DNA of 64,000 nucleotides from the NCBI GenBank assembly GCA_000830275.1, contig CP010424.1:1071311-1135310 (forward strand). Reading direction: 5' to 3'. This DNA comes from an archaeon GW2011_AR10. Its GTDB lineage: Archaea; Iainarchaeota; Iainarchaeia; Iainarchaeales; GW2011-AR10. The notes under the pieces are model-generated. The model was not told the origin of the DNA and did not search any database. It saw nothing but the letters and a program-made list of their open reading frames with translations. This document shows, piece after piece, positions 2,814 to 59,929 of this stretch (positions within the stretch are counted from its first letter, which is position 1; every line of letters begins with the position of its first letter). The translations under genes were made by a program, and so were the position numbers.

Positions 2814-2854
2814 TAAACGGTAACCCCCGTTCGGCTGCAAAGTCAGCCGGCACC

Positions 2855-2956
2855 TTGTACGTGTCCTTCCTTCGGAAGGACGGTAGTTCGTTCTCAGTTT
2901 GCAAGTTGTACGTGTCCTTCCTTCGGAAGGATGGTAGTTCGTTCTCAGTTTGCAAG
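2855..2956. repeat. Tandem 2 x 51-bp structured repeat (family-1 hairpin element; 7-bp stem GTCCTTC/GAAGGAC with CUUCG loop)
   Basis: Two near-identical 51-bp units (2855-2905, 2906-2956), one mismatch in the stem. A related GTGCC..GGCAT hairpin follows at 2957-2990. The spurious ORF 2806..3078 translates this repeat (NLQTENELPSFRRKDTY twice). Confidence 0.8.
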
Positions 2957-3063
2957 TTGTGCCGTGCGTTGCATGGCATTGGCCTGCCTTTTAGGTCTCG
3001 CACAATTGGTGTCATAACTAAAATTATAGCAAAACGCTTAAGTAATTGAACATTGAACTTGCG

Positions 3064-3120
3064 TTTTGCATCTAGCAAACAGCAATAAAAAGTTCAAAAA
3101 TATAAGCTGTTTGCTATAGT
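3064..3120. promoter_or_regulatory. Family-2 palindromic element TAGCAAACAGC-N22-GCTGTTTGCTATA upstream of rad50
   Basis: Perfect 11-bp inverted arms at 3073-3083 and 3106-3116. The same arms occur at 49283-49293 / 49316-49326 upstream of topA. Confidence 0.6.
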
Positions 3121-3133
3121 AGTTAAAATTATT

Positions 3134-3397
3134 TTAAAGTAAGGTCATCTGCTCTAATTCTGCGTCCTCAACGGTTTTTAGGGCCTTTATTTTGCTTGTT
3201 ACGTCCTCGATTGCCATTTCATCCTTTTCTGGCACCAGCACGCCAAGCTTTAAGACTTCAATTCCAAAGCCTATTGGCTCACGCTTTACATCCTTAACCT
3301 TGCAGTTCTTCAGCTGCCTTAAATCCTGCTCGGTTTCAGCTAGCTTTTCTGGGTCCTTTGGTATGACCTTGAAAACCGCAAAAGTGCTTCCAACCAT
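3134..3397 (-). CDS. Translation elongation factor aEF-1 beta
   Basis: An 87-aa acidic protein; AVFKVIPKDPE...REPIGFGIEVLKLGVLV matches archaeal EF-1beta (vikVmPesPe...eepiAFGLkalkl.vvv). Confidence 0.75.
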   Translation of the reverse strand: MVGSTFAVFKVIPKDPEKLAETEQDLRQLKNCKVKDVKREPIGFGIEVLKLGVLVPEKDEMAIEDVTSKIKALKTVEDAELEQMTLL

Positions 3398-3481
3398 AAA
3401 CTGCGACCTCCGTTTTAACTGAAACCGCAGTTAACTAAAACTTTGGCAACTGAAATATGTTTAATTATTTCTTTCGCCAAA

Positions 3482-3610
3482 GTTTTACACGGTGTGCCAT
3501 ACTCCTTTCAGTTGTATGGCACTGGCTCGGCTCTTGCGAGCCTCGCAAAATGGTAACCTCAATTTACGAGGTGTGGCATTTTCAGTGCCACGTGCTCGTT
3601 TCACTCGCAT
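3482..3610. repeat. Two family-1 hairpin units (GTGCCAT..TTTCAG..ATGGCAC; GTGGCA..TTTCAG..TGCCAC), each preceded by TTTACAC/TTTACGAGG
   Basis: Direct sequence inspection. Stems of 6-7 bp with conserved TTTCAG in the loop; the TGGCTCG motif is shared with the copy at 59590-59610. Confidence 0.65.
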
Positions 3611-3621
3611 AAATTAACCCA

Positions 3622-3777
3622 TTATGGGCCAACAAACCCGCATTTCTTGCAGGTGTAAGTTTTAGAGGTTGCCCGCGCCTTATGTGAGCGCACAATCCAT
3701 TCTTCAAAACAGCCAGGGCACCTGAATTCCACAAAGTCGCCGATGACCTGCGTGTTAGTTGTACTGCAAATCTTCAT
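3622..3777 (-). CDS. Zn-ribbon protein (COG2888-like), conserved neighbour of aEF-1beta
   Basis: C-terminal 51 aa MKICSTT..FRCPGCFEEWIVRSHKARATSKTYTCKKCGFVGP with two CxxC pairs. The 94-aa track ORF (to 3906) has a non-conserved N-terminal extension running up to the tRNA gene, so the internal Met at 3777 is used. Confidence 0.5.
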   Translation of the reverse strand: MKICSTTNTQVIGDFVEFRCPGCFEEWIVRSHKARATSKTYTCKKCGFVGP

Positions 3778-3910
3778 TTCAATCAAACCAAAGTTTAAAT
3801 AATTAGGGTTATACGTAATTCCTATAGAGTATCCTTTAAAAAGCTTTGGCGGAGCCACTTTTTTGCAAACCTTTTGTTGAAAAGGTTTTGGTGGAGCCAG
3901 AGCCAATAAA

Positions 3911-3984
3911 GGGCCTATAGCTTAGTGGACCAGAGCAAACGGCTTCGGACCGTTAGATCGGGGGTTCGAGTCCCTCTAGGCCCG
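3911..3984 (+). tRNA. tRNA-Arg (anticodon TCG)
   Basis: Hand-folded cloverleaf: acceptor GGGCCTA/TAGGCCC, D-stem GCTT/GAGC, anticodon stem AACGG/CCGTT with loop CTTCGGA (U33, anticodon TCG), T-arm GGGGG-TTCGAGT-CCCTC, discriminator G. No encoded CCA. Confidence 0.8.
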
Positions 3985-3985
3985 T

Positions 3986-4044
3986 AAAAACGGAAAGCTC
4001 CGTTTGCGAGCTGTACGTGTCCAACTTTCAGTGGGACGGTAGTA
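3986..4044. repeat. Family-1 element immediately 3' of tRNA-Arg (AAACGG-AAAGCT-CCGTTT hairpin, then GCGAGCTGTACGTGTCC..TTTCAG..GGGACGGTAGT)
   Basis: Near-identical to the copy inside the tRNA-Gly intron (59297-59358) and to the tandem units at 2855-2956. Confidence 0.7.
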
Positions 4045-4097
4045 CTGCTTCAGCCAGCGAGGTGCCTGTAAAACGGAAAATATTTAAAATTTGAGGA

Positions 4098-4781
4098 ATG
4101 AAAATGCCGCGGCCAAGAAAAAGATTGGAAAGGAAAAAGCCAGTTTATGGTACAGGGGCGATGGAGGGAGTAGAGTCAATAGTAAAAAGACTTAAAGGAA
4201 GAAAACTTGTTCACAAAGTATTCCGTTTGGGTTGGCTTGAAAAACACCTTGATTTTGGCGGAAATTTAAGGTGGATTTCTGAAAGATATGGAACAATGAT
4301 GCAAGACGCAAGAAGAGACTCCAACCTAATGGGTAGAAAAAGTCTTCATACAATTCCGCCAAACCAGTGGAAAATGTCAACCTTTATATTGGCAGGCCAT
4401 TCGGTGGATGTAATTAATACTGCAAGAAGGCTTGGAATTCCAACGCCAAAAGTTTTTAGGTCAGTTTTGGTTGACAAAAAATATTACGCTATCGAAATGA
4501 GTGACTTATCGAAGCGCGGCACAACTATCCTTGCTGGTCATCAGCTAAATTACGCACAGTATCAGAGAGGCATAAGCAATTATGAAGAATTAATGCGACA
4601 AATATGGGGGGATACAGAAAAATTGGGCAAGGCAGGTTATGTGGAAAGCTCACAACACTTACCTTTTGGGGGCTGGCTGATCAGAGTTAACAATAAAACC
4701 AAGATTGCGGAACGGTTCTTTGTTGATGCAACAAACTTCGTTTACATAAAAGAACCAGAAATTGTAAAAAAGAAAAAATGA
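4098..4781 (+). CDS. Hypothetical protein, possibly a degenerate RIO/Bud32-like small kinase fold
   Basis: 227 aa. Weak resemblances only: a Gly-rich GTGAMEGVES segment followed by a VHKVFR lysine, LAGHSVDVINT, FVDATNF. Not confidently assignable. Confidence 0.3.
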   Translation: MKMPRPRKRLERKKPVYGTGAMEGVESIVKRLKGRKLVHKVFRLGWLEKHLDFGGNLRWISERYGTMMQDARRDSNLMGRKSLHTIPPNQWKMSTFILAGHSVDVINTARRLGIPTPKVFRSVLVDKKYYAIEMSDLSKRGTTILAGHQLNYAQYQRGISNYEELMRQIWGDTEKLGKAGYVESSQHLPFGGWLIRVNNKTKIAERFFVDATNFVYIKEPEIVKKKK

Positions 4782-35742: not shown

Positions 35743-35807
35743 TCTACCCCCAGAAAGAATTTTCCATGATAACAGTTTTAAACTAATGTCAGCACTTATT
35801 TATATAA

Positions 35808-35940
35808 CAAATGACCTTACTTTGTCAAACATTTTTGTCATTTGCTATCTGTCAGGTGACAATAAATATTCAAAAATTAAAGCAGGTTGCTATAGCAAAT
35901 GAACAATAATTGTTCAATTATTAATGTAATTCGCTATAAC
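35808..35940. promoter_or_regulatory. Family-2 repeat element (TTTGCTATA-containing) upstream of rfcS
   Basis: 35837-35880 is the reverse complement of 49386-49429 (2 mismatches in 44 bp). TTGCTATA motifs are repeated. Confidence 0.6.
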
Positions 35941-35964
35941 AAAAAATTTTGTGGAGCGTAGACA

Positions 35965-36444
35965 ATGAACTCAAACCAAGCCTTAAAAGTTGTTTTTCTG
36001 TTTATTCTGTCGTACATTCTGCTTTACTCGCTTGGAGCTGTTTTTGGGGCCTTGACTGGCTTCAGGGATTGGGGTTTCACCACCAACATATTCAAGCTAG
36101 ATTACTTTTACTTTCTAATCCCTATTCCGGCCTTCTTTTTCATGTTCTTCTTGGTTGACTGGATTGAGCAATACTTTGAAACAAAGCTTACGAGAAACTT
36201 TATTTTCCCTGTTTTTTTCGTTGCACTGGCGCTTATCGCATACTATGTTGCAGTATTCTGGTTTTACTGTAACCTGTTCAGCTTGGCCGAGGAATCAGTG
36301 TGCTCTGCCAACGGCTCATCTGCTGCAATGCAGTATGTCTCACAAACCTTTGTTTCCTCTCTTTTACAGTCACCTTACATAATTTTCGTGCTTGCAGCGG
36401 TTTTGGGGTGGCTTTCAAAGCTCTTGGTCGAGCGCTTCGAGTAG
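35965..36444 (+). CDS. Membrane protein, hypothetical
   Basis: 4-5 TM helices. Confidence 0.4.
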   Translation: MNSNQALKVVFLFILSYILLYSLGAVFGALTGFRDWGFTTNIFKLDYFYFLIPIPAFFFMFFLVDWIEQYFETKLTRNFIFPVFFVALALIAYYVAVFWFYCNLFSLAEESVCSANGSSAAMQYVSQTFVSSLLQSPYIIFVLAAVLGWLSKLLVERFE

Positions 36445-47112: not shown

Positions 47113-49221
47113 TTACTGTTTAGGCTTTTGTATAACCGCGGTTGAAATGGCTTCAGAGTCCTTCTTTTTTACAGTATTTTCAAGCTTTTTTTCCCCAGCT
47201 TTTTTCCAGTCTGCTTTTGAAGGGCATTGCGGGAAAATGCACATTTCGTAACGGTATCGTTTTCCAAAAACTTTTATAACTGGCTTTCCGCACTGCTCGC
47301 AGAGCTTGTCAGTGGAAACAATTTTTCCCTTCTGTGGAAGAGGATATGTATTCATGCAGTCAGGGTATCGGTTGCATGCAAGGAACCACTTGCCGTTCTT
47401 GCTCTTGAGCTTTCTCAGTTGGCCTTTACCGCACTTGTCGCATGTTCCAATAACTGAGTCGGCTTGCAGTGCTTTCCGCAAGTCGCTCCCAACATTATTC
47501 TTGTTCTTAAGCATGTCCTCCAGTATGATTCCCAAAAAGTCCCTTGACTCGTCCACAACCTCTTTTTTTGATTTTTTGCCTGCTGCAACCAAGTCCATTT
47601 CTTTTTCTAGTTCTGCAGTCATCTTTGGCTCGGTTACCCTCTTAGCGTACTTATCCAGTGAATCAATTACTGCAAAGGCAACCTGGTTTGGCTCCATTGC
47701 CTTTAGCCCGGCAATGTAATGCCTTGCATAAAGCTTTTGAAGTATCTCGTGCCTTGTAGCCTTTGTGCCGAGATTCAAGTCCTCCATTAGCTTGATAAGG
47801 CTTGACTGAGAGTAACGCGGCGGCGGCACAGTTTCCTTTTCAAGCAAGTTCATTTTCAGCAGCTTCACTTCATCTCCTTCAAGCATTTCCGGCAGGATTA
47901 CTTCAGTGATTTTAGAGTAAGGGTAGACGTCCTTCCAGCCCGCCTTCAAAATAAGCTGCCCCCTTGCAATGAATGGCTCGCCATTAACATGGATTTCAAC
48001 ACTCTGGTTTTCAGTTTCAGCGTCCTCTGAGAGAGTGGCAAGGAACCTCCTAACAATCAGCTCGTAAATTTTCCACTGCCTTTCACTCAATTTGCTTTTA
48101 GGGGCAGCAGAAACAGGGTGAATTGGAGGATGGTCTTTTGAAGCTTTCTCGCCGGCGCTTGGCACAAGCTTGCCTCTGCTGAGAATTTCTCCAACCAAAT
48201 GAGAGAACTCGTTTACTTTCACCATCTCGTCCAGTATCTGCTTCAAGTCAATTGTTGGGGGGTAATGTGTGTTATCCGTTCTTGGGTAAGATGTATAACC
48301 CTGCTGGTAGAGGAACTCTGCGTGGTTCATGGCTTCCCCTACACTCATTCCAATTGCTGTTGCAGCACGCAAAAAGTTGGTTGTATTGAATGGTGTTGGC
48401 CTTGCAAGAACTCGCTTCTTCCTTGAAATGCTTTTTACAATTCCGCGTTCGGATTTTTTTTCCATAATTTTTTCGGCAGTTTCCTTGTCCCACATCTGAC
48501 CATTCTTGTGTTCTGTCTCAAAATTTTTGGAATCCTTTTCGAACAGCGCTGAAACAACCCAGTACTTCTTTGATTTGAACGCGTTCCGTTCCTTTTCCCT
48601 TTTTACAAGTATTGCGAGCACAGGTGTCTGCACCCTGCCAGCGCTCAAAAAGTCCTTTCCAAGCTGGCCGCTTACAAGCGACAGAAAACGCGTTAAAACA
48701 GCTCCCCAAAGGAGGTCAATTTCCCGCCGTGAATCAGCTGAATCAGCAAAGTTGAAGTCAACTTTTGCCAGTTTTGCGAAGGCATCCTCTATGTCCTTCT
48801 GCGTTATTGCCGAAAAATACGCTCTTTTCACTGCAATTTTTGGCTTTGATTGCTTGACAATGTTCAGCGCTTCAACACCAATTGATTCTCCCTCGCGGTC
48901 AGCATCAGTTGCAATAATCACTTCATCAGCTTTTTCTCCAAGGCTTTTCAAAGCGGAGGCAATCACCTTCTCTTTGGTTAAGTACTCTATCTCCGCTGTT
49001 GCAAGCTTCTTTAAGTCGGTTCCAAGCCAGTAGCTGTACTTTTTTGGGAAATCAACGTCAACAATGTGGCCCCGCAGCGGCACAACAACCCAGTCTTGCT
49101 CCGCTCTCTTGAAGGAGAAAATAATTGCTTTGCCGGAAGCAGTGGCAGGTACTTCCTTGCCTGCGAGAATCGAGGCAATCCTTCTCCCAGCAATGGCTTT
49201 CTCTGAAATAATCATCTTCAT
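47113..49221 (-). CDS. topA: DNA topoisomerase I (type IA)
   Basis: TOPRIM at the N-terminus (VIIATDADREGE); a topo IA core; C-terminal zinc ribbons (CDKCGKG...C..C, CEQCGKPV...C..C). Confidence 0.85.
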   Translation of the reverse strand: MKMIISEKAIAGRRIASILAGKEVPATASGKAIIFSFKRAEQDWVVVPLRGHIVDVDFPKKYSYWLGTDLKKLATAEIEYLTKEKVIASALKSLGEKADEVIIATDADREGESIGVEALNIVKQSKPKIAVKRAYFSAITQKDIEDAFAKLAKVDFNFADSADSRREIDLLWGAVLTRFLSLVSGQLGKDFLSAGRVQTPVLAILVKREKERNAFKSKKYWVVSALFEKDSKNFETEHKNGQMWDKETAEKIMEKKSERGIVKSISRKKRVLARPTPFNTTNFLRAATAIGMSVGEAMNHAEFLYQQGYTSYPRTDNTHYPPTIDLKQILDEMVKVNEFSHLVGEILSRGKLVPSAGEKASKDHPPIHPVSAAPKSKLSERQWKIYELIVRRFLATLSEDAETENQSVEIHVNGEPFIARGQLILKAGWKDVYPYSKITEVILPEMLEGDEVKLLKMNLLEKETVPPPRYSQSSLIKLMEDLNLGTKATRHEILQKLYARHYIAGLKAMEPNQVAFAVIDSLDKYAKRVTEPKMTAELEKEMDLVAAGKKSKKEVVDESRDFLGIILEDMLKNKNNVGSDLRKALQADSVIGTCDKCGKGQLRKLKSKNGKWFLACNRYPDCMNTYPLPQKGKIVSTDKLCEQCGKPVIKVFGKRYRYEMCIFPQCPSKADWKKAGEKKLENTVKKKDSEAISTAVIQKPKQ

Positions 49222-49269
49222 TCAATCAACTCAAGCTATGGCAAAATGCTTATTTATTTGAACAAAAAT

Positions 49270-49470
49270 TGCATTTTGCAACTAGCAAACAGCAAATTAA
49301 TGCTCAAAAATCAAAGCTGTTTGCTATATATCAAATGACATTAATAATTGAACATTTATTATTCATTTGCTATAGCAGGCGACATTAATTTTTGAGCATT
49401 TATTGTCGCCTGACAGATAGCAAATGACCTTATTTTTTCAAATATTTTCGCCATTTGCTATATTTTTGGC
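49270..49470. promoter_or_regulatory. Family-2 palindromic/inverted-repeat element cluster upstream of topA
   Basis: TAGCAAACAGC (49283-49293) and GCTGTTTGCTA (49316-49326), as at 3073/3106. 49386-49429 is the reverse complement of 35837-35880. Four TTTGCTATA copies. Confidence 0.65.
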
Positions 49471-50408: not shown

Positions 50409-50496
50409 ATTTTTATATAGGGGCTTCTACCCTTTTTAAGTGTTTCATTTTGTTAAGTCAACTGCTTTACAATTCCTTTCCCCAAAAATCGCGGTT

Positions 50497-50612
50497 AAAT
50501 GTGCCTTGCGGCACAGCCTTTTAAAAAAAGGCTGGCGAAAATGTGGCTTCGCCGAAGCCTTTTAAAAAAAGGCTGGCGAAAATGTGCCTTGCGGCAAAAC
50601 CTTTTTATAGCA
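50497..50612. repeat. Tandem ~41-bp hairpin repeat (family 3: GTGCCTTGCGGCAC / AGCCTTTTAAAAAAAGGCT / GGCGAAAATGTG)
   Basis: ~2.5 direct copies. Each unit contains two hairpins, one with a palindromic CCTTTTAAAAAAAGG stem-loop. Lies in the divergent promoter region. Confidence 0.75.
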
Positions 50613-54795: not shown

Positions 54796-55284
54796 ATGTT
54801 TGTTTCAAACACTTCAACCCTGATACTGCTGGCAAAAGTTGATTTGCTGGGCCAATTCATTGAAAATTTTGGGAAAATCGAGATAACTGGAGAGGTAAGC
54901 AAAGAGTTTTCTGCAAAAGATTCTTTTGATGCAAAATTTATAAGCCGCTTAATTGAAGAGAAAAAAGTAATCGTCAAAAAAGCGGAGAGTAACATGGTTT
55001 CTGGTATTTTGATGGAGTTTTCCTTGGATAAGGGCGAGGCAACGGCGTTTGCATTATTTAATGAAAAAAGGCACAAAGCAATTTTGACGGACGACTATGA
55101 ATTAATAAAACTGTGCATGCTGAGGGAAGTACAGTTTCTTTCTGCAATGGCAATAGTTGTCAGAATGAAAGAAAAAAAGATTTTGAGCAAAGAAGAAGCC
55201 CTGCAAAAAATCAATGAATTAAACTCTTATGGGCGATATTCAAGAGAGTTGCTCGATTTTTACGTTTCGGAGGTGAAAAAGTGA
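54796..55284 (+). CDS. PIN-like nucleic-acid-binding protein (DUF3368/COG2405), putative toxin
   Basis: VSNTSTLILLAKVDLLGQF N-terminus matches the DUF3368 start (vvDtS.LIaLakig.LdLL). Confidence 0.55.
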   Translation: MFVSNTSTLILLAKVDLLGQFIENFGKIEITGEVSKEFSAKDSFDAKFISRLIEEKKVIVKKAESNMVSGILMEFSLDKGEATAFALFNEKRHKAILTDDYELIKLCMLREVQFLSAMAIVVRMKEKKILSKEEALQKINELNSYGRYSRELLDFYVSEVKK

Positions 55285-55581: not shown

Positions 55582-55673
55582 GTTGTTTTAAGCATTCTTG
55601 ACGGTGCAGTTCCAGCCAAAAAAAATTGAGCTACTGCGCGTAGAAGTGAATTTAAGGGCTCCTTGTGAGTGCG
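55582..55673. repeat. Direct repeat copy 2 (~92 bp) flanking the TA cassette
   Basis: See copy 1; ends at the orc1 upstream region. Confidence 0.8.
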
Positions 55674-55719
55674 TTTCCGGTGCAAGCCTTTTAATCTTCT
55701 TCCGACAATATTTTTTTTG

Positions 55720-56850
55720 ATGAAGAAAAACATTTTTGAGCGCTCCGGCAAGGAGAAGCAGGTTTTTAAGGATGAAAAGTACCTTTACCCCGAGTTTGTG
55801 CCGGAGAGGCTTCCGCACCGTGACAGGGAAATTGATGCGCTAGTGTATGGCTTTAATCCTTTGGTTAAGGGGGGGAAACCGCACAACTTTTTTGTTGTCG
55901 GGCCAACAGGCGTTGGAAAAACTGCCTGCGTGAAGTATGTTTTGAATGAGCTGCAGGAATACAGCGACAGGGCAAAAGCCCTTTACTTGAACTGCTTCGA
56001 GTTCAATGCAAGGCACGCAATTCTCTCCAAAATAGCGAATTTTTTGGGCGCTCCTGTTCCAAGGCGCGGGATTGCAACAGATGAAATTTATTCGAGGTTC
56101 CTTGAGGCCTTGAAGAAGGCTGATTTTTCCCCAGTAATTGTTTTGGATGAAGTTGACCAGCTTCTTTTGAAGGCTGATGGGTCAAAGCTTTTGTATGATT
56201 TGCTGCGCGTAGTGGAGTATGAGAGGGCAAGAGTTGCCTTGGTGCTTATTTCGAATGACATTGAGTTGACAGCAAAACTTGATTCCCGCGTGAGGAGCTC
56301 CCTCACAGAGGAAAAAATTGTTTTTGAGTCCTACACTCCAGCGCAGTTGAAGGACATTCTGCGCGAGAGGGCATCCTTTGCTTTTTTGTCTGGGGCACTT
56401 GGAGAGGAAGTAATACCTGTTGCTGCAGCTCACGCCGCAAGGCTTGGGGGAGACGCAAGAATTGCAATTGAATCCTTGTTGAAGGCGGGAAGGGAAGCAG
56501 AGAAAGAGAATTCCGGCAAAGTTGAAGTGAAGCACTTGAAAAAATCTTTTGAGTCAGTTGATGCGGTTTCTTTGCTGAAAGGAATTAGGCACTTGAATGA
56601 AAGCGAGGCACTGCTGCTTAAGCTTATTGCTGAAAAGCCCGGCATTTTTTCCGGGGAACTGTTCAAGGCCTTTGGCGGGAAAACTGAACCGCTTTCAGAG
56701 AGGAGGCTCCGCGATCTGTTGAATGGCTTGGAGAAAAAAAACTTTGTTTTCTCAGAGCAAGTCAGCCTAGGCAACAAGGGCAAAACAAGAAGTTTTTCGT
56801 GCAGGCTTCCAAGAGAGCCACTAATGCGGGAGCTTAACCGAAACCAATAA
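55720..56850 (+). CDS. cdc6: Orc1/Cdc6 replication initiator
   Basis: FVVGPTGVGKTACVKYVL Walker A, VLDEVD Walker B, C-terminal winged helix. Start placed at ATG 55720 (MKKNIFERSG...) rather than the upstream extension that runs into the repeat. Confidence 0.85.
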   Translation: MKKNIFERSGKEKQVFKDEKYLYPEFVPERLPHRDREIDALVYGFNPLVKGGKPHNFFVVGPTGVGKTACVKYVLNELQEYSDRAKALYLNCFEFNARHAILSKIANFLGAPVPRRGIATDEIYSRFLEALKKADFSPVIVLDEVDQLLLKADGSKLLYDLLRVVEYERARVALVLISNDIELTAKLDSRVRSSLTEEKIVFESYTPAQLKDILRERASFAFLSGALGEEVIPVAAAHAARLGGDARIAIESLLKAGREAEKENSGKVEVKHLKKSFESVDAVSLLKGIRHLNESEALLLKLIAEKPGIFSGELFKAFGGKTEPLSERRLRDLLNGLEKKNFVFSEQVSLGNKGKTRSFSCRLPREPLMRELNRNQ

Positions 56851-56897: not shown

Positions 56898-57713
56898 ATG
56901 GCAAAAACCTATAAGAGGTCTGCAACTAGGGCCCTGAAAAAGCAGATAAAATCCCTGAAAAAAGAGGGCACAAAAATTAAGTCAAAGACCTCAAAGCTTG
57001 ATGTTGAGCTGAAGAAGCTGAAGGACGGCCTCGAAAAGCTTAAGGGGAAAGGCGTGAAGAAAAAACAGCTTTCGAGGTACAACTTGTTCATTCGTGACCA
57101 GCTGAAGAAGGGCAGGACATTTGTTCAGGCAGTGCGGCTTTGGAAGAGAGCCGAGAAAGCAACAAGGGTTTTAAGAAAAAAGCCAAGCACAAAAAGCAAA
57201 ACAGTGAAGCCAAAATCAGTTCCCAAAAAGAAATCAGCAGGCCATAAAACCGCCAAAAAAGCAAAAAGCAGTAAAGCGAAAACAAAGCCTGCCAGGAAAA
57301 AAATAACTAAAAAGGTTATAAGAAAGGTTAAGGTTCCAACTGTTATTACAAAGTTTAAGCCAAGGATAATTGAGAAAGATGTTCTTTCCAAGGAAAAAAT
57401 TGACCAGATTGTTTCAAGGCTTGACGAAAAACAGAAATCAATGATTGACTCAATAATGTTGCAGATGAAGTATCCAAAACAAGCAATGGTTTCTGAAAGC
57501 GCGGTTGTTCCATCAGATGAGGAAATCGCGATAAAACTCACGAGGCTTTACTTCCGAGAAATAGCTCAACTCGGATTTAAGCGCGGCCTAGAGCTTGATG
57601 CAATAATCAATGCTTACCTTTACTCTCTTGCAAGAGTGCAGAGGATGGGCTTTGAAAGCCAAGAGATAATTGACGCAATAAGAAAATCGGAGATAAGCAG
57701 GAAAGCGTTTTAG
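56898..57713 (+). CDS. Lys-rich DNA-binding-like protein with C-terminal paralogous domain
   Basis: A histone-H1-like K-rich region; the segment LSRYNLFIRDQLKKGRTFVQAVRLWKR loosely resembles an HMG box; the C-terminal ~45 aa are shared with the next ORF. Confidence 0.4.
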   Translation: MAKTYKRSATRALKKQIKSLKKEGTKIKSKTSKLDVELKKLKDGLEKLKGKGVKKKQLSRYNLFIRDQLKKGRTFVQAVRLWKRAEKATRVLRKKPSTKSKTVKPKSVPKKKSAGHKTAKKAKSSKAKTKPARKKITKKVIRKVKVPTVITKFKPRIIEKDVLSKEKIDQIVSRLDEKQKSMIDSIMLQMKYPKQAMVSESAVVPSDEEIAIKLTRLYFREIAQLGFKRGLELDAIINAYLYSLARVQRMGFESQEIIDAIRKSEISRKAF

Positions 57714-57724
57714 GGGGCGGTTAA

Positions 57725-58003
57725 ATGGAGAAAAAAAATTCTTTGTCGGATGAAGAGGTTGCATTTGAGATTGTGAAGCTTTACTTTGAGGAAATAGCAA
57801 GGCTTGGCTTTAAGAGGAGCCTGGACCTTGATGCAATAATCAATGCTTACTTTTACACAAACGAAAGGCTGAAGAACAAGAGCAAGGACTTGGAAGAAAT
57901 AAGGAAAAAGGTTTTAGAGGAAGAGAGAAAGCTTGCAACCGAAACAAAAGAAGAGCTTTTCCCAAGCCTTGAGGAATTAAAGCAAAAACTTGGGGATGCC
58001 TAA
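57725..58003 (+). CDS. Small protein sharing the VKLYFEEIARLGFKRSLDLDAIINAYFY domain with the upstream gene
   Basis: A 24-bp identical DNA stretch (57593-57616 vs 57827-57850). Confidence 0.4.
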   Translation: MEKKNSLSDEEVAFEIVKLYFEEIARLGFKRSLDLDAIINAYFYTNERLKNKSKDLEEIRKKVLEEERKLATETKEELFPSLEELKQKLGDA

Positions 58004-58009
58004 CAAAAT

Positions 58010-59197
58010 TCAGTGTGACAACTGTATTTTTATCACGTCGTTGTTTTTGAGCTCGTGGTCTTTTCCTATTCTTTGGCCTGTCCTGCAGTCAACTGCTGCG
58101 ATGAACCTTTCAACGAAGCCTGAGTGAATTGCTTCCGCCAGCCTAATAGCAGTTGAGCCCTTTCTCAGCAAGTAAGCGTCAGGCAAAAAGTTTCCTTTCC
58201 CGCTCTGCCACTTGTTTGAGTCCTGCACTGGGTAAACAACTATTAGGCTCAAAAGCCCGAAAGCAGTTTTATTGATTGCCTGTTGGACGCCGGTGCTGCC
58301 CCACTTTTTCAAAACATTTGACATTATGAATTCTAGTGCTTTCCTCTGCTTTTCTGGGAGTTCTTGTTTCAGCAGCTTGAATTCGCTGCTGCCTGGCACA
58401 TACTCAATTATTCCTGCTTTTGCTGCTTTCCTTAACGCAAGCTCCGCTTCACTGCAGCACGGGATTATAATGTGCTGCGGGAACTCCTTGACAAGCCTTT
58501 CATAGTTTTCCTTTGCGCCCTCCAAATCAATCTTGTTTGCAACAACAATCATTGGCTTGCTTTTTTTTCTTATTTCCTCAGAAAATCGCAGTATTTCCTC
58601 CTCACTCCATGAGTCTGGCTTTTCGCTGAAGGAGCCTTTCTCCAGAACGCTTTTGACTTCATCTTCTGTTATGCCTAGGCCTGTTAGCTGATTTGCAAGC
58701 CCCTCGCTTGCTTTCCCTGCAAGGGATGCCTGCTTCGAGATTTTGCCCCAGTTCTTGGTGAGAATTCCATTAATCCAATAGCTTATTTCTTTTTCAAGGA
58801 ACCGCACATCCTCTGCCGGGTCATTGCTCTCAACGGAGTTTCCCTCAAGGTCTGTTCTCCCGCTTGCATCAAGCACCTGAATCAGTGCTTTTGCCTGCAT
58901 CAAGTCATTCATGAAAGCATTTCCAAGGCCCTTTCCTTTGTGGGCGTCAGGCACCAATCCTGCAACATCCAGCAAAGTGATTGGAATAAGCCTTATGCTA
59001 TTCTCGCACTTGCTGTTAACGGGCTGGCAGGGCTTTTCTTTTTCCTCGTGCACGCATTTTGTTGAAACATATGCTGTGCCCTGGTTGGGCTTGATTGTTG
59101 TGAAAGGCCGGTTCGCTATTTCCACATCAACAAGCGTTGCTGCGCTAAAAAAAGTTGATTTTCCCTTGTTTGGGCCCCCTACAACGCCTATAATCAT
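58010..59197 (-). CDS. Obg-family GTPase (YchF/OLA1-like) with C-terminal TGS-like domain
   Basis: G1 GVVGGPNKGKST, a FTT effector region, C-terminal ...NDVIKIQLSH. Confidence 0.6.
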   Translation of the reverse strand: MIIGVVGGPNKGKSTFFSAATLVDVEIANRPFTTIKPNQGTAYVSTKCVHEEKEKPCQPVNSKCENSIRLIPITLLDVAGLVPDAHKGKGLGNAFMNDLMQAKALIQVLDASGRTDLEGNSVESNDPAEDVRFLEKEISYWINGILTKNWGKISKQASLAGKASEGLANQLTGLGITEDEVKSVLEKGSFSEKPDSWSEEEILRFSEEIRKKSKPMIVVANKIDLEGAKENYERLVKEFPQHIIIPCCSEAELALRKAAKAGIIEYVPGSSEFKLLKQELPEKQRKALEFIMSNVLKKWGSTGVQQAINKTAFGLLSLIVVYPVQDSNKWQSGKGNFLPDAYLLRKGSTAIRLAEAIHSGFVERFIAAVDCRTGQRIGKDHELKNNDVIKIQLSH

Positions 59198-59261: not shown

Positions 59262-59444
59262 GCAGCTGTAGTGTAATGGCAGCATCCGAGCTTCCCAAAA
59301 GCGGAAAGGCCCGTTTACGACCTGTACTTGTTCCACTTTCAGTGGGACGGTAGTTCAAGGTTTGCTCAAGTTTGCTCATACGGCCTTAGTTATTTTCACG
59401 ATTGGAATGAGCTCGTAGCCCGGGTTCGAGTCCCGGCAGCTGCA
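59262..59444 (+). tRNA. tRNA-Gly (anticodon CCC) with ~112-nt intron at position 37/38
   Basis: Exon 1 is 59262-59297 (acceptor GCAGCTG, D-stem GTGT/GCAT, anticodon stem CGAGC, loop TTCCCAA); exon 2 is 59410-59444 (A-GCTCG-TAGC-CCGGG-TTCGAGT-CCCGG-CAGCTGC-A). The intron, 59298-59409, contains a family-1 element. An alternative register gives Trp(CCA) but needs C33. Confidence 0.6.
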
Positions 59445-59625
59445 TTAAACCGTATTCGGTTTACGAATGTGCCATGCTCCGTTTCACTTTGCATGGCACT
59501 GCTCAAACGGAAAGATCCGTTTACGACCTATATGTGTGCCATCTTCGATGGCACGATAATTTTGCTCAGTTGCAAGGTGTGCAATCTGCGATGGCACTGG
59601 CTCACTTCGTTCTCCAAAAAAAGAA
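59445..59625. repeat. Cluster of 3-4 family-1 hairpin units (GTGCCAT..ATGGCAC stems; AAACGG-loop-CCGTTT hairpins; TTTACGA linkers)
   Basis: Direct inspection; shares TTTACGACCT, AAACGGAAAG and TGGCTC motifs with copies at 2855-3000, 3482-3610, 3986-4044. Confidence 0.65.
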
Positions 59626-59929
59626 AGAAGAGAAAGGGTCAGTTGACCCTTTTTAATTCCTTTATCCTTTCCTCGATTCCTTTGACTTCGTTTTCAAGGC
59701 TGTCCTTGTATTCTTCCAGCATTTCTATTTTCTCTTCTTTTGTAAGGTACCTTCTTGGGGCTTCAAAGCCTTCCCCGCAACATACGTAACTCACTCCAAT
59801 TCCTCCCGAACATTTAATTTGTATCGGTTATACGATACTTAAGTAGTATTTATACTAAGGCATATTTATATATATCGGTCACCCAATATTAGTATGCATG
59901 ATACTAGTTATGCCAGATACTGTTGTGAC

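Follow-up and report, generated by a model that had tools for sequence, protein, structure and literature searches.

A two-hairpin dispersed repeat resembling bacterial REP and MITE elements at tRNA genes and other non-coding sites of Iainarchaeota

Structured repeats of the REP (repetitive extragenic palindrome) and MITE (miniature inverted-repeat transposable element) types are well documented in bacteria and, to our knowledge, barely described in archaea. Archaeal examples of MITEs are the SM elements of Sulfolobus and those of haloarchaea, and transposed or mobile tRNA introns have been proposed for Thermoproteales. In bacteria, REPs and the bacterial interspersed mosaic elements (BIMEs) are tagged short palindromes with a canonical 5' GTAG tag that are extragenic, occur in arrays and inverted pairs and come in several stem variants (PMC3733652). 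Here we describe a family of two-hairpin units in a 64-kb stretch, hereafter the window, from the genome of archaeon GW2011_AR10, an uncultured DPANN archaeon of the Iainarchaeota (Diapherotrites). The family behaves like an undescribed archaeal counterpart of bacterial REP/MITE-type selfish repeats and not like a dedicated tRNA-processing signal, and we lean towards regarding its units as a structured, REP/MITE-like and non-autonomous repeat whose spread involves tandem duplication, dispersal and conversion of one copy by another. The literature searched held no account of a comparable element from Iainarchaeota or any other DPANN archaeon.

For this genome, the window and 19 kb of flanking sequence of the contig were examined, ~83 kb in total. 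A covariance model of the second hairpin of the unit (R1), made from an alignment of ten window units (A1), gave ten matches over the whole window with filters off, all on the plus strand and with E values from 1e-4 to 8e-11, while the eleventh-best match had E = 2.9. At locus 1 the matches lie at 2845-2894 (u1), 2896-2948 (u2), 2949-2995 (u3), 3482-3538 (u4), 3561-3607 (u5) and 4001-4053 (u6), at locus 2 at 59312-59364 (u7), 59458-59515 (u8), 59518-59566 (u9) and 59567-59613 (u10), and the window repeats are spaced by 43-139 nt. The adjoining 19 kb yielded neither an extra copy nor an extra tRNA. An earlier interpretation made from the letters of the window (hereafter the sequence-only reading) had counted at least nine copies, restricted to these two loci, each of which holds a tRNA. 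The family is real and its count is corrected to ten; R1 found nothing else in the 64 kb and the 19-kb flank, and the copies are indeed clustered at the two tRNA genes, the only ones in the ~83 kb.

Full units, for which a second covariance model (R2) was made, consist of a first hairpin (hp1), a 13-nt linker (RCRANNYRYAYKT) preceded by TTTRC, a second hairpin (hp2) and a GRTARTA tail. The 6-bp stem of hp1 closes a loop of ~6 nt and mostly reads AAACGG/CCGTTT (3988-4005, 59299-59316 and 59505-59522), with compensated variants CAGCTG, GGCTG/CAGCC, CAGCGA/TCGCTG and AAACGA/TCGTTT; hp1 variants of the window lie at 2815-2831, 2833-2850 and 59447-59462. In hp2, 8 bp enclose a UNC triloop, and the first pairs, G-C and U-A, are invariant. 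Short-linker units (u3, u4, u5, u8 and u10) are without hp1 or part of the linker and are followed by another small hairpin.

The units and the two tRNA genes are all on the plus strand. Locus 1 opens at 2815-2850 with two hp1-type hairpins seen in the sequence and the minimum-free-energy fold (AAACGG-taaccc-CCGTT and CGGCTG-caaagt-CAGCCG), beginning 1 nt from the start codon of the oppositely oriented Rad50 gene, and a full-unit R2 match spans 2832-2892 (64.7 bits). Here u1 (R1 31.1 bits, E = 3.7e-6) has a long linker, the hairpin GTCCTTCC/GGAAGGAC and a GGTAGT tail and is followed by u2 (R1 45.8 bits; Tandem Repeats Finder, TRF) and by u3 (2949-3003; R1 25.5 bits, E = 1.3e-4; fold) with the hairpin TGCCGTGC/GCATGGCA and an extra small hairpin. 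In the spacer between the zinc-finger and aEF-1beta genes, antisense to both, lies u4 (3482-3548; R1 38.6 bits; sequence), with GTGCCATAC/GTATGGCAC, an 11-nt loop and a GGCTC/GAGCC hairpin; u5 (R1 43.8 bits) carries GTGGCA/TGCCAC. The full unit u6 (3988-4076; R2 73.4, R1 48 bits) comprises hp1 at 3988-4005, the 13-nt linker, hp2 at 4019-4037 and the tail GGTAGTAC, and terminates in a second TAAAACGG. Five of the ten units are separated from the tRNA gene of locus 1 by the aEF-1beta and zinc-finger genes, and these five are antisense to the zinc-finger, aEF-1beta and Rad50 genes because they sit in both spacers of this minus-strand gene string. At locus 2, the full unit u7 (59299-59359; R2 68 bits, R1 41.9 bits) is followed by u8 (59447-59515; R1 26.7 bits, E = 6e-5; fold), with the hp1 variant AAACCG/CGGTTT, a short linker, GTGCCATGC/GCATGGCAC and a 13-nt loop. 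Further on are the full unit u9 (59505-59565; R2 79.2 bits; blastn), with AAACGG-aaagat-CCGTTT, GTGCCATC/GATGGCAC and a GATAAT tail, and u10 (R1 43 bits) with GTGCAATC/GATGGCAC.

Pairing in hp2 is kept while the stem sequence changes. In the ten window copies 97.5% of the cells of A1 are paired and six of eight pairs have changed on both sides; none of 500 shuffles was paired as highly, and slid controls were 30-54% paired. Across 19 full units from five genomes, aligned without gaps, the value is 97.4% with 11 of 14 pairs changed on both sides, and for hp2 in 29 copies it is 97.3%. These figures bear out the modular hairpin family with compensatory changes that the sequence-only reading had proposed, while the GGTAGT that it placed after the second stem is present in four of the ten window copies and missing from the others, most copies in relatives having GGTAAT or GATAAT. 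Both strands fold well beyond the level of shuffled controls and to a similar degree (z = -4.9 / -4.7 at locus 2 and -3.8 / -3.1 at locus 1). Wobble pairs looked decisive for the strand of function in the window copies (5 G-U vs 0 A-C), an asymmetry that faded to a weak one at 29 copies (5 G-U vs 2 C-A). Since both strands fold alike and this asymmetry is weak, pairing does not single out a functional strand, and the equal two-strand folding together with the weak wobble bias is more in keeping with a DNA repeat than with a strand-specific RNA gene. Inspected by eye, the hp2 flanks did not fit a K-turn, an 11-nt tetraloop receptor, a loop-E or a T-loop. A generic double-hairpin scan gave about the same counts as shuffled sequence, and a sigma-70 promoter and terminator scan is uninformative for an archaeon.

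Dyad symmetry of the units would also be expected of palindromes bound by a protein at the DNA level, either as operators or as origin-recognition boxes near orc1/cdc6 (55669-56850), from which locus 2 is 2.4 kb away. However, the half-sites differ freely between copies yet stay complementary, and we give this explanation very little credence because a duplex-binding protein would not tolerate freely varying half-sites; the covariation pattern largely refutes it, and origin-recognition boxes are ruled out by the varying stems. Moreover, locus 1 is 52 kb from orc1/cdc6, the spacers adjoining that gene hold no copy, and copies are found within an intron and within an RNase P RNA.

At locus 1, tRNA-Arg(TCG) lies at 3911-3984 on the plus strand (ARAGORN; Rfam 67.2 bits; sequence) without a downstream oligo-T terminator, and hp1 of u6 begins 3 nt past its discriminator base, as the sequence-only reading had recognised in describing a copy that abuts the 3' end. 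At locus 2, tRNA-Gly(CCC) spans 59262-59444 on the plus strand with exon 1 at 59262-59297, a 112-nt intron at 59298-59409 and exon 2 at 59410-59444. It was identified by reading the sequence and by a centroid fold in which the acceptor and anticodon stems and a central helix are paired, while ARAGORN and Rfam at the gathering threshold miss it because of its long intron. The insert is located at the canonical 37/38 position. A 4-bp central helix pairs UUCC (59292-59295) with GGAA (59404-59407), with bulges of 3 nt each (C36 A37 A at 59296-59298 and U G A38 at 59408-59410), beside the anticodon stem CGAGC/GCUCG. This is the bulge-helix-bulge motif of archaeal introns, and the insert is therefore a spliceable intron, which says nothing of the repeat family being introns. 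The copy reported inside this intron is u7, which starts at intron nucleotide 2, and the splice motif is built from intron ends outside u7. Three units (u8-u10) follow tRNA-Gly, with hp1 of u8 beginning 2 nt past the discriminator base.

Some further features of these tRNA genes were observed. The hp1 stem AAACGG/CCGTTT matches the anticodon stem of tRNA-Arg (AACGG/CCGTT, 3938-3942/3950-3954) and the base of helix P12 in an RNase P RNA of a relative (contig L017, 3672-3790), a match that may be fortuitous or may tell of the element's origin or of its targeting. An origin as a tRNA 3' half, with hp1 as the anticodon stem of tRNA-Arg and hp2 with its UUCR loops as a T-arm, was considered and dropped, as no match to a tRNA model supports it. 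Just upstream of tRNA-Arg, a direct repeat AAAAGCTTTGGCGGAGCCA (3838-3857) / AAAAGGTTTTGGTGGAGCCA (3879-3899), whose second copy stops 12 nt ahead of the tRNA, could represent a promoter that was duplicated. In these genomes tRNAs often contain introns (window 59262-59444, L018 9351-9437, L019 9322-9421, L029 887-1017), and the tRNA-Arg orthologues in L018 and L019 hold short inserts that the window tRNA-Arg does not have.

Comparison with loci and contigs fetched from strains, relatives and metagenomes (numbered L003, L010, L011 and so on) reveals the habits of a repeat. The family multiplies by local tandem duplication, u2 being a recent tandem duplicate of u1 with a 51-nt period and 98% identity (TRF). 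It also disperses to unlinked loci. In the Iainarchaeum metagenome-assembled genome (MAG) JACPKT01, ~96-nt units on L011 and L014 differ at 2 positions (98% identical) within unrelated flanks and are bounded on both sides by A-runs in direct orientation; window 11.8-16.2 kb and L011 are syntenic, with ~66% nucleotide identity, and the matching window spacers hold no unit. A copy in another genus (L016) shares 95% identity with u9 over 56 nt (blastn). Whole hairpin variants are replaced between copies as well: between the window and the strain contig L003, which share 99.8% identity over 7.4 kb, nine of the 15 differences fall within 26 nt of u6, where L003 has GTACGT-GTCCAACtttcAGTGGGAC swapped for the perfectly paired GTATGT-GTCCCTTCttcGAAGGGAC, the variant found in the P12 copy of JACPKT01, another genus. 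Hairpin variation is therefore at least partly an exchange of whole variants between copies and not solely stepwise compensatory mutation. This qualifies the selection on RNA structure deduced in the sequence-only reading, in that the covariation is strong and the stem variation behind it is partly made of whole-hairpin swaps.

Orthologous spacers of the nearest relatives lack the element. In the three closest relatives fetched (Rad50 47-54% identical) the gene order is retained: CCA-adding enzyme, tRNA-Arg, zinc-finger protein, aEF-1beta and Rad50. In the window these spacers are 320 nt between Rad50 (750-2813, minus) and aEF-1beta (3134-3397, minus) and 224 nt between aEF-1beta and the gene for an HVO_2753-type zinc-finger protein of 51 aa (3622-3777, minus), as opposed to 56-104 nt and 35 nt in the relatives, and R1 found no match in 66 kb of the three. 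A single tRNA-Arg trailer among the relatives (L020) has a two-hairpin layout alike with a different sequence, to which R2 gave no match. Empty orthologous spacers and the varied contexts in related genomes do not support the notion that covariation by itself shows a function in tRNA processing.

Searches beyond the species returned copies from related genomes. A degenerate unit pattern gave seven loci in a genome scan, on six contigs of JACPKT01 and in one further MAG, and a second pattern gave seven in a metagenome scan, five of them real and two chance matches in GC-rich coding DNA (L024 and L028). Neither pattern scan returned the window's own species, and there was no pattern match in viral contigs, phages or plasmids. 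In these related loci R1 found at least 25 further copies, with at least 14 in 36 kb of selected JACPKT01 contigs. Only a subset of Iainarchaeota has the element, and its copies are all either extragenic or inside RNA genes. Most of those in related genomes flank protein-coding genes in either orientation, so that the supposed confinement to tRNA loci does not hold. Copies follow directly after stop codons in sense (L013, L015/L027, L016 and L017), lie right against the start codon of a gene in the opposite orientation, like the copy at Rad50 (L011, L013, L014, L017 and L030) or form convergent pairs (L026). Stable-RNA genes account for six of ~20 independent sites across genomes, although such genes make up only a few per cent of gene boundaries. 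One copy is immediately 3' of an SRP (signal recognition particle) RNA (L013). An array homologous to u9-u10 directly follows a different, intron-containing tRNA in another genome (L029), and composite arrays are common to this trailer and that of tRNA-Gly. Units at the 3' ends of tRNAs and SRP RNA are invariably in sense and begin 0-3 nt from the mature end, and in nearly every case the hp1 end is 0-3 nt from the gene boundary.

RNase P RNA is another site of residence. In L017, helix P12 holds two inverted units flanked by AAACGG...CCGTTT, and a second expansion consists of hp1- and hp2-like hairpins. This RNA is 477 nt long, compared to 364 nt in L031 and 319 nt with a minimal P12 in L032, both from relatives with AlaS 67% identical, so that what P12 of L017 contains is an insertion specific to its lineage. 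The RNase P RNAs are located at L017 3441-3917, L031 5158-5521 and L032 3495-3813. Iainarchaeal RNase P RNAs score 50.8-69.4 bits against an Rfam gathering threshold of 84 and would thus escape standard annotation.

The placement at stable RNAs would also suit a host RNA module for the formation, protection or processing of transcript 3' ends, chiefly those of stable RNAs. A specific protein would recognise hp1, hp2 and the fixed flanks and mark or shield the precursor end, and the intron and RNase P copies would be by-products. This is the main alternative, even if we hold it to be doubtful. Sense units begin 0-3 nt past the mature 3' ends of tRNA-Arg, tRNA-Gly, the L029 tRNA and the L013 SRP RNA, and the L020 tRNA-Arg trailer repeats the layout with compensated sequence. 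The unpaired motifs TTTRC, YRTAYGT and GRTARTA are strongly conserved between genera with ~66% identical genomes, both hairpins covary strongly, tRNA-Arg is not followed by an oligo-T terminator, and several copies in relatives come after stop codons in sense. However, the element is missing at the orthologous tRNA-Arg and spacers of the closest relatives, an antisense orientation to the flanked genes is found for half of the window copies and for several in relatives, and an end signal makes no sense in an intron or, in both orientations, in RNase P P12. Near-identical copies at unlinked loci and the strain allele swap are hallmarks of a repeat.

A dispersed REP/MITE-like repeat, the reading we lean towards, accounts for these positions in another way. 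The copy positions show that the sites occupied are those where extra structured RNA is harmless: tRNA 3' trailers, a bulge-helix-bulge intron, the tip of RNase P P12, an SRP RNA trailer, and untranslated regions or spacers in either orientation. Removal falls to tRNase Z for the tRNA 3' trailers and to the splicing endonuclease for bulge-helix-bulge introns. Recognition of a folded single strand by the copying machinery might be why the hairpins and their fixed flanks are kept, and the likeliest candidate would be an HUH/Y1 enzyme (IS200- or RAYT-like) or another structure-specific enzyme encoded elsewhere in the genome that recognises hp2 and its fixed flanks. The excess at stable RNAs could reflect a preference in targeting or in survival, with the hp1 end landing 0-3 nt from a gene boundary, and copies may secondarily serve as hairpins that protect RNA ends, as bacterial REPs do. 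Of the roles suggested in the sequence-only reading, that of a mobile, intron-like element comes close to this view; only one of ~35 copies is intronic.

Several results weigh against a selfish repeat. A transposase or recombinase was found neither in the window nor in any fetched locus, and the copying mechanism is therefore wholly inferred. The units have no terminal inverted repeats, neither at the L011/L014 unit boundaries nor at u6, and no unambiguous target-site duplication: where direct repeats flank a copy (TAAAACGG at u6, AAACGG at the P12 insertion, A-runs at the 96-nt unit), each may just as well mark where the next unit of an array begins. Unit identity between the window species and JACPKT01 is 85-95% where syntenic DNA is ~66% identical, which exceeds the expectation for a neutral selfish repeat. 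All copies in the 83 kb lie within 1.2 kb of only two tRNA genes and both tRNA 3' flanks are occupied (p ~0.002 by a rough estimate that places four occupied spacers at random among ~85), in addition to the six of ~20 sites at stable-RNA genes and the sense placement at tRNA and SRP RNA ends. Such placement would also be explained by a host function or by strict target specificity, and the L020 trailer, with its shared layout and different sequence, hints at a conserved architecture. The conservation and the placement at stable RNAs therefore require either a target preference with a conserved trans-acting partner or a host function. The two-hairpin module could also be a new archaeal signal that a protein recognises and that some Iainarchaeota use for end formation or protection at stable-RNA and some mRNA 3' ends; being mobile too, it would drive the growth of tRNA introns and RNase P RNA. 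We rate this combination as rather unlikely.

Independent small-RNA genes, or a guide-RNA-like array of the C/D-box, TIGR or CRISPR-like kind with the stem arms as specificity segments, were also considered. The tandem order of conserved flank, variable segment, conserved loop, variable segment and conserved flank invites such a view, and the antisense strand of JACPKT01-type units, with a TATA-like TTTTATATGG and an end in hp1 and T7, resembles a small gene with its own terminator. Nevertheless, the variable segments are complementary to each other, hence not free guides, and the units of the window species are without a promoter-like AT-rich segment, so that we regard small RNAs of this kind as improbable. 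In sense orientation no unit is followed by T5 or longer, as an intrinsic or oligo-T terminator would be, and T5-8 after hp1 is found only on the antisense strand of JACPKT01-type copies. TIGR arrays have 36-nt units with alternating edge and loop repeats of 8-12 nt, two non-complementary 9-nt spacers and an adjacent Tas gene (PMC12045711); the units described here measure 47-96 nt, have mutually complementary arms and are without a Nop-domain (Tas) or cas gene nearby. A CRISPR array is rejected, as the stems differ between repeats, unique spacers are missing and the Pfam listings contain no cas genes. Box C/D and H/ACA RNAs are rejected as well, given no K-turn signature, no UGAUGA on either strand and no internal pocket on inspection. 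Rfam returned only tRNA and no family matching the units, both at the gathering threshold and at E <= 10. The sequence-only reading had set the CRISPR, C/D-box and H/ACA classes aside as well.

The surroundings of the array contain other repeats and genes of note. The aEF-1beta protein has an identical sequence in the MAGs GCA_013332025.1 and GCA_018304495.1 and in many groundwater metagenomes, and Rad50 homologues carry the source names Diapherotrites or 'ainarchaeum'. Next to tRNA-Arg, a gene without annotation (4098-4781, plus) precedes that of the CCA-adding enzyme, while locus 2 is bordered by a GTPase gene (58010-59197, minus) on one side and a small minus-strand gene on the other. Pfam and NCBIfam gave no informative match for the neighbours at 4098-4781, 56898-57713, 57725-58003 and 59639-59794. 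A second, AT-rich repeat family consists of ~45-nt modules (TTGAACA/GTTCAA, an A/T-rich stretch and TTTGCTATA(G/T)), often as inverted pairs, at window 3024-3119, 35800-35945 and 49236-49463 and at L017 4290-4386. These modules lie in spacers, ~22-28 nt upstream of some start codons (topA at 49221 and a gene at 35965), and are probably BRE/TATA promoter motifs. The pair at 3024-3119 is 75% identical to that of another genus (L017) and adjoins the hairpin-unit array in both genomes. A metagenome contig of the same species (L010, 4264-4913) matches the window up to 3024 and then has a different gene in place of u3-u1 and Rad50; the switch falls exactly at the edge of the AT-rich module (window 3021-3024) and is either a rearrangement or an assembly join at the repeat.

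Further into the window, three tandem units of 41-42 nt at 50473-50605 carry the palindromes AGCCTTTTAAAAAAAGGCT and GTGCCTTGCGGCAC and have no R1 match. They occupy a divergent spacer where gene orientation switches, at the minimum of cumulative GC skew and ~5 kb from orc1/cdc6, and are a candidate replication origin or regulatory region. A gene pair of DUF3368 (PIN-like) and UPF0175 (54796-55284, with the next small gene) is probably a toxin-antitoxin system. Outside the window, about 2-3 kb past its end (L034 5138-6520), are a restriction endonuclease of the Mrr type and a fragment of 150 aa that weakly matches a DDE transposase.

The small repeat described here has colonised the few non-coding niches of a streamlined archaeal genome, namely tRNA trailers, a spliceable tRNA intron, an SRP RNA trailer and RNase P P12, and offers a concrete and testable way for tRNA introns of archaea to grow longer and for catalytic RNAs to gain expansion segments. 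It also has practical consequences, since standard finders overlook a tRNA gene because of the element and the RNase P RNAs drop under the Rfam threshold; R1 and R2 can be used for masking or annotating it. Were the preference for stable RNAs functional, DPANN archaea would probably have an RNA-end pathway not known so far, and a module that is both a used end signal and mobile would be a direct source of tRNA-intron growth and of RNase P RNA expansion segments.

Among known systems, each comparison holds in part. With MITEs the family shares non-coding, dispersed structured repeats of 50-100 nt, near-identical unlinked copies and empty sites in relatives, but the terminal inverted repeats that define MITEs, a clear target-site duplication and a parent insertion sequence are missing, the weak DDE fragment outside the window being the only trace of a transposase nearby. 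Like the subterminal hairpins of IS200/IS605 and palindrome-associated transposable elements (PATEs), the units have a TTAC/TTGC at a fixed short distance 5' of a structure-conserved hairpin, and all ten window copies are on one strand. In contrast to IS200/IS605, neither TnpA nor TnpB was found, and, at odds with lagging-strand targeting, the copies to both sides of the presumed origin are on the same strand; by eye, the TTRC motif was not seen to covary with the 4 nt at the foot of the hairpin. Mobile archaeal tRNA introns also place related sequence inside a bulge-helix-bulge intron and elsewhere in the genome, whereas the sequence shared here is a general intergenic repeat.

Bacterial REP/BIME elements, including REPINs, which are mobilised by RAYT HUH/Y1 transposases, are the closest known family. 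There are differences, as the host is archaeal and the unit is bipartite, with two hairpins and a 13-nt linker in 60-96 nt, compared to the single palindrome of 20-40 nt in REPs. The GTAG-like tag is 3' of the stem on the same strand, a mirror image of the canonical one, and is not conserved, reading GRTAAT in most relatives. Arrays are mostly direct and not alternating, and the excess at stable-RNA genes, including the intron and RNase P P12, is marked. No RAYT (HUH/Y1) gene was found in the ~83 kb of window and flanks or in the fetched loci. The REP-like palindromes themselves are 19 nt (hp2) and 18 nt (hp1), with ten copies in 83 kb, a local and not a genome-wide count. As in REP/BIME, short imperfect palindromes have conserved unpaired tags beside the stem and are extragenic, often just 3' of genes and occasionally inside them; a GTAG lies next to the stem in window-type copies (GGTAGT, four of the ten in the window). 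Likewise, they form arrays and inverted pairs with several stem variants per genome that keep their pairing, their copy number is lineage-specific and their distribution patchy, and they are plausibly transcribed and able to protect RNA 3' ends.

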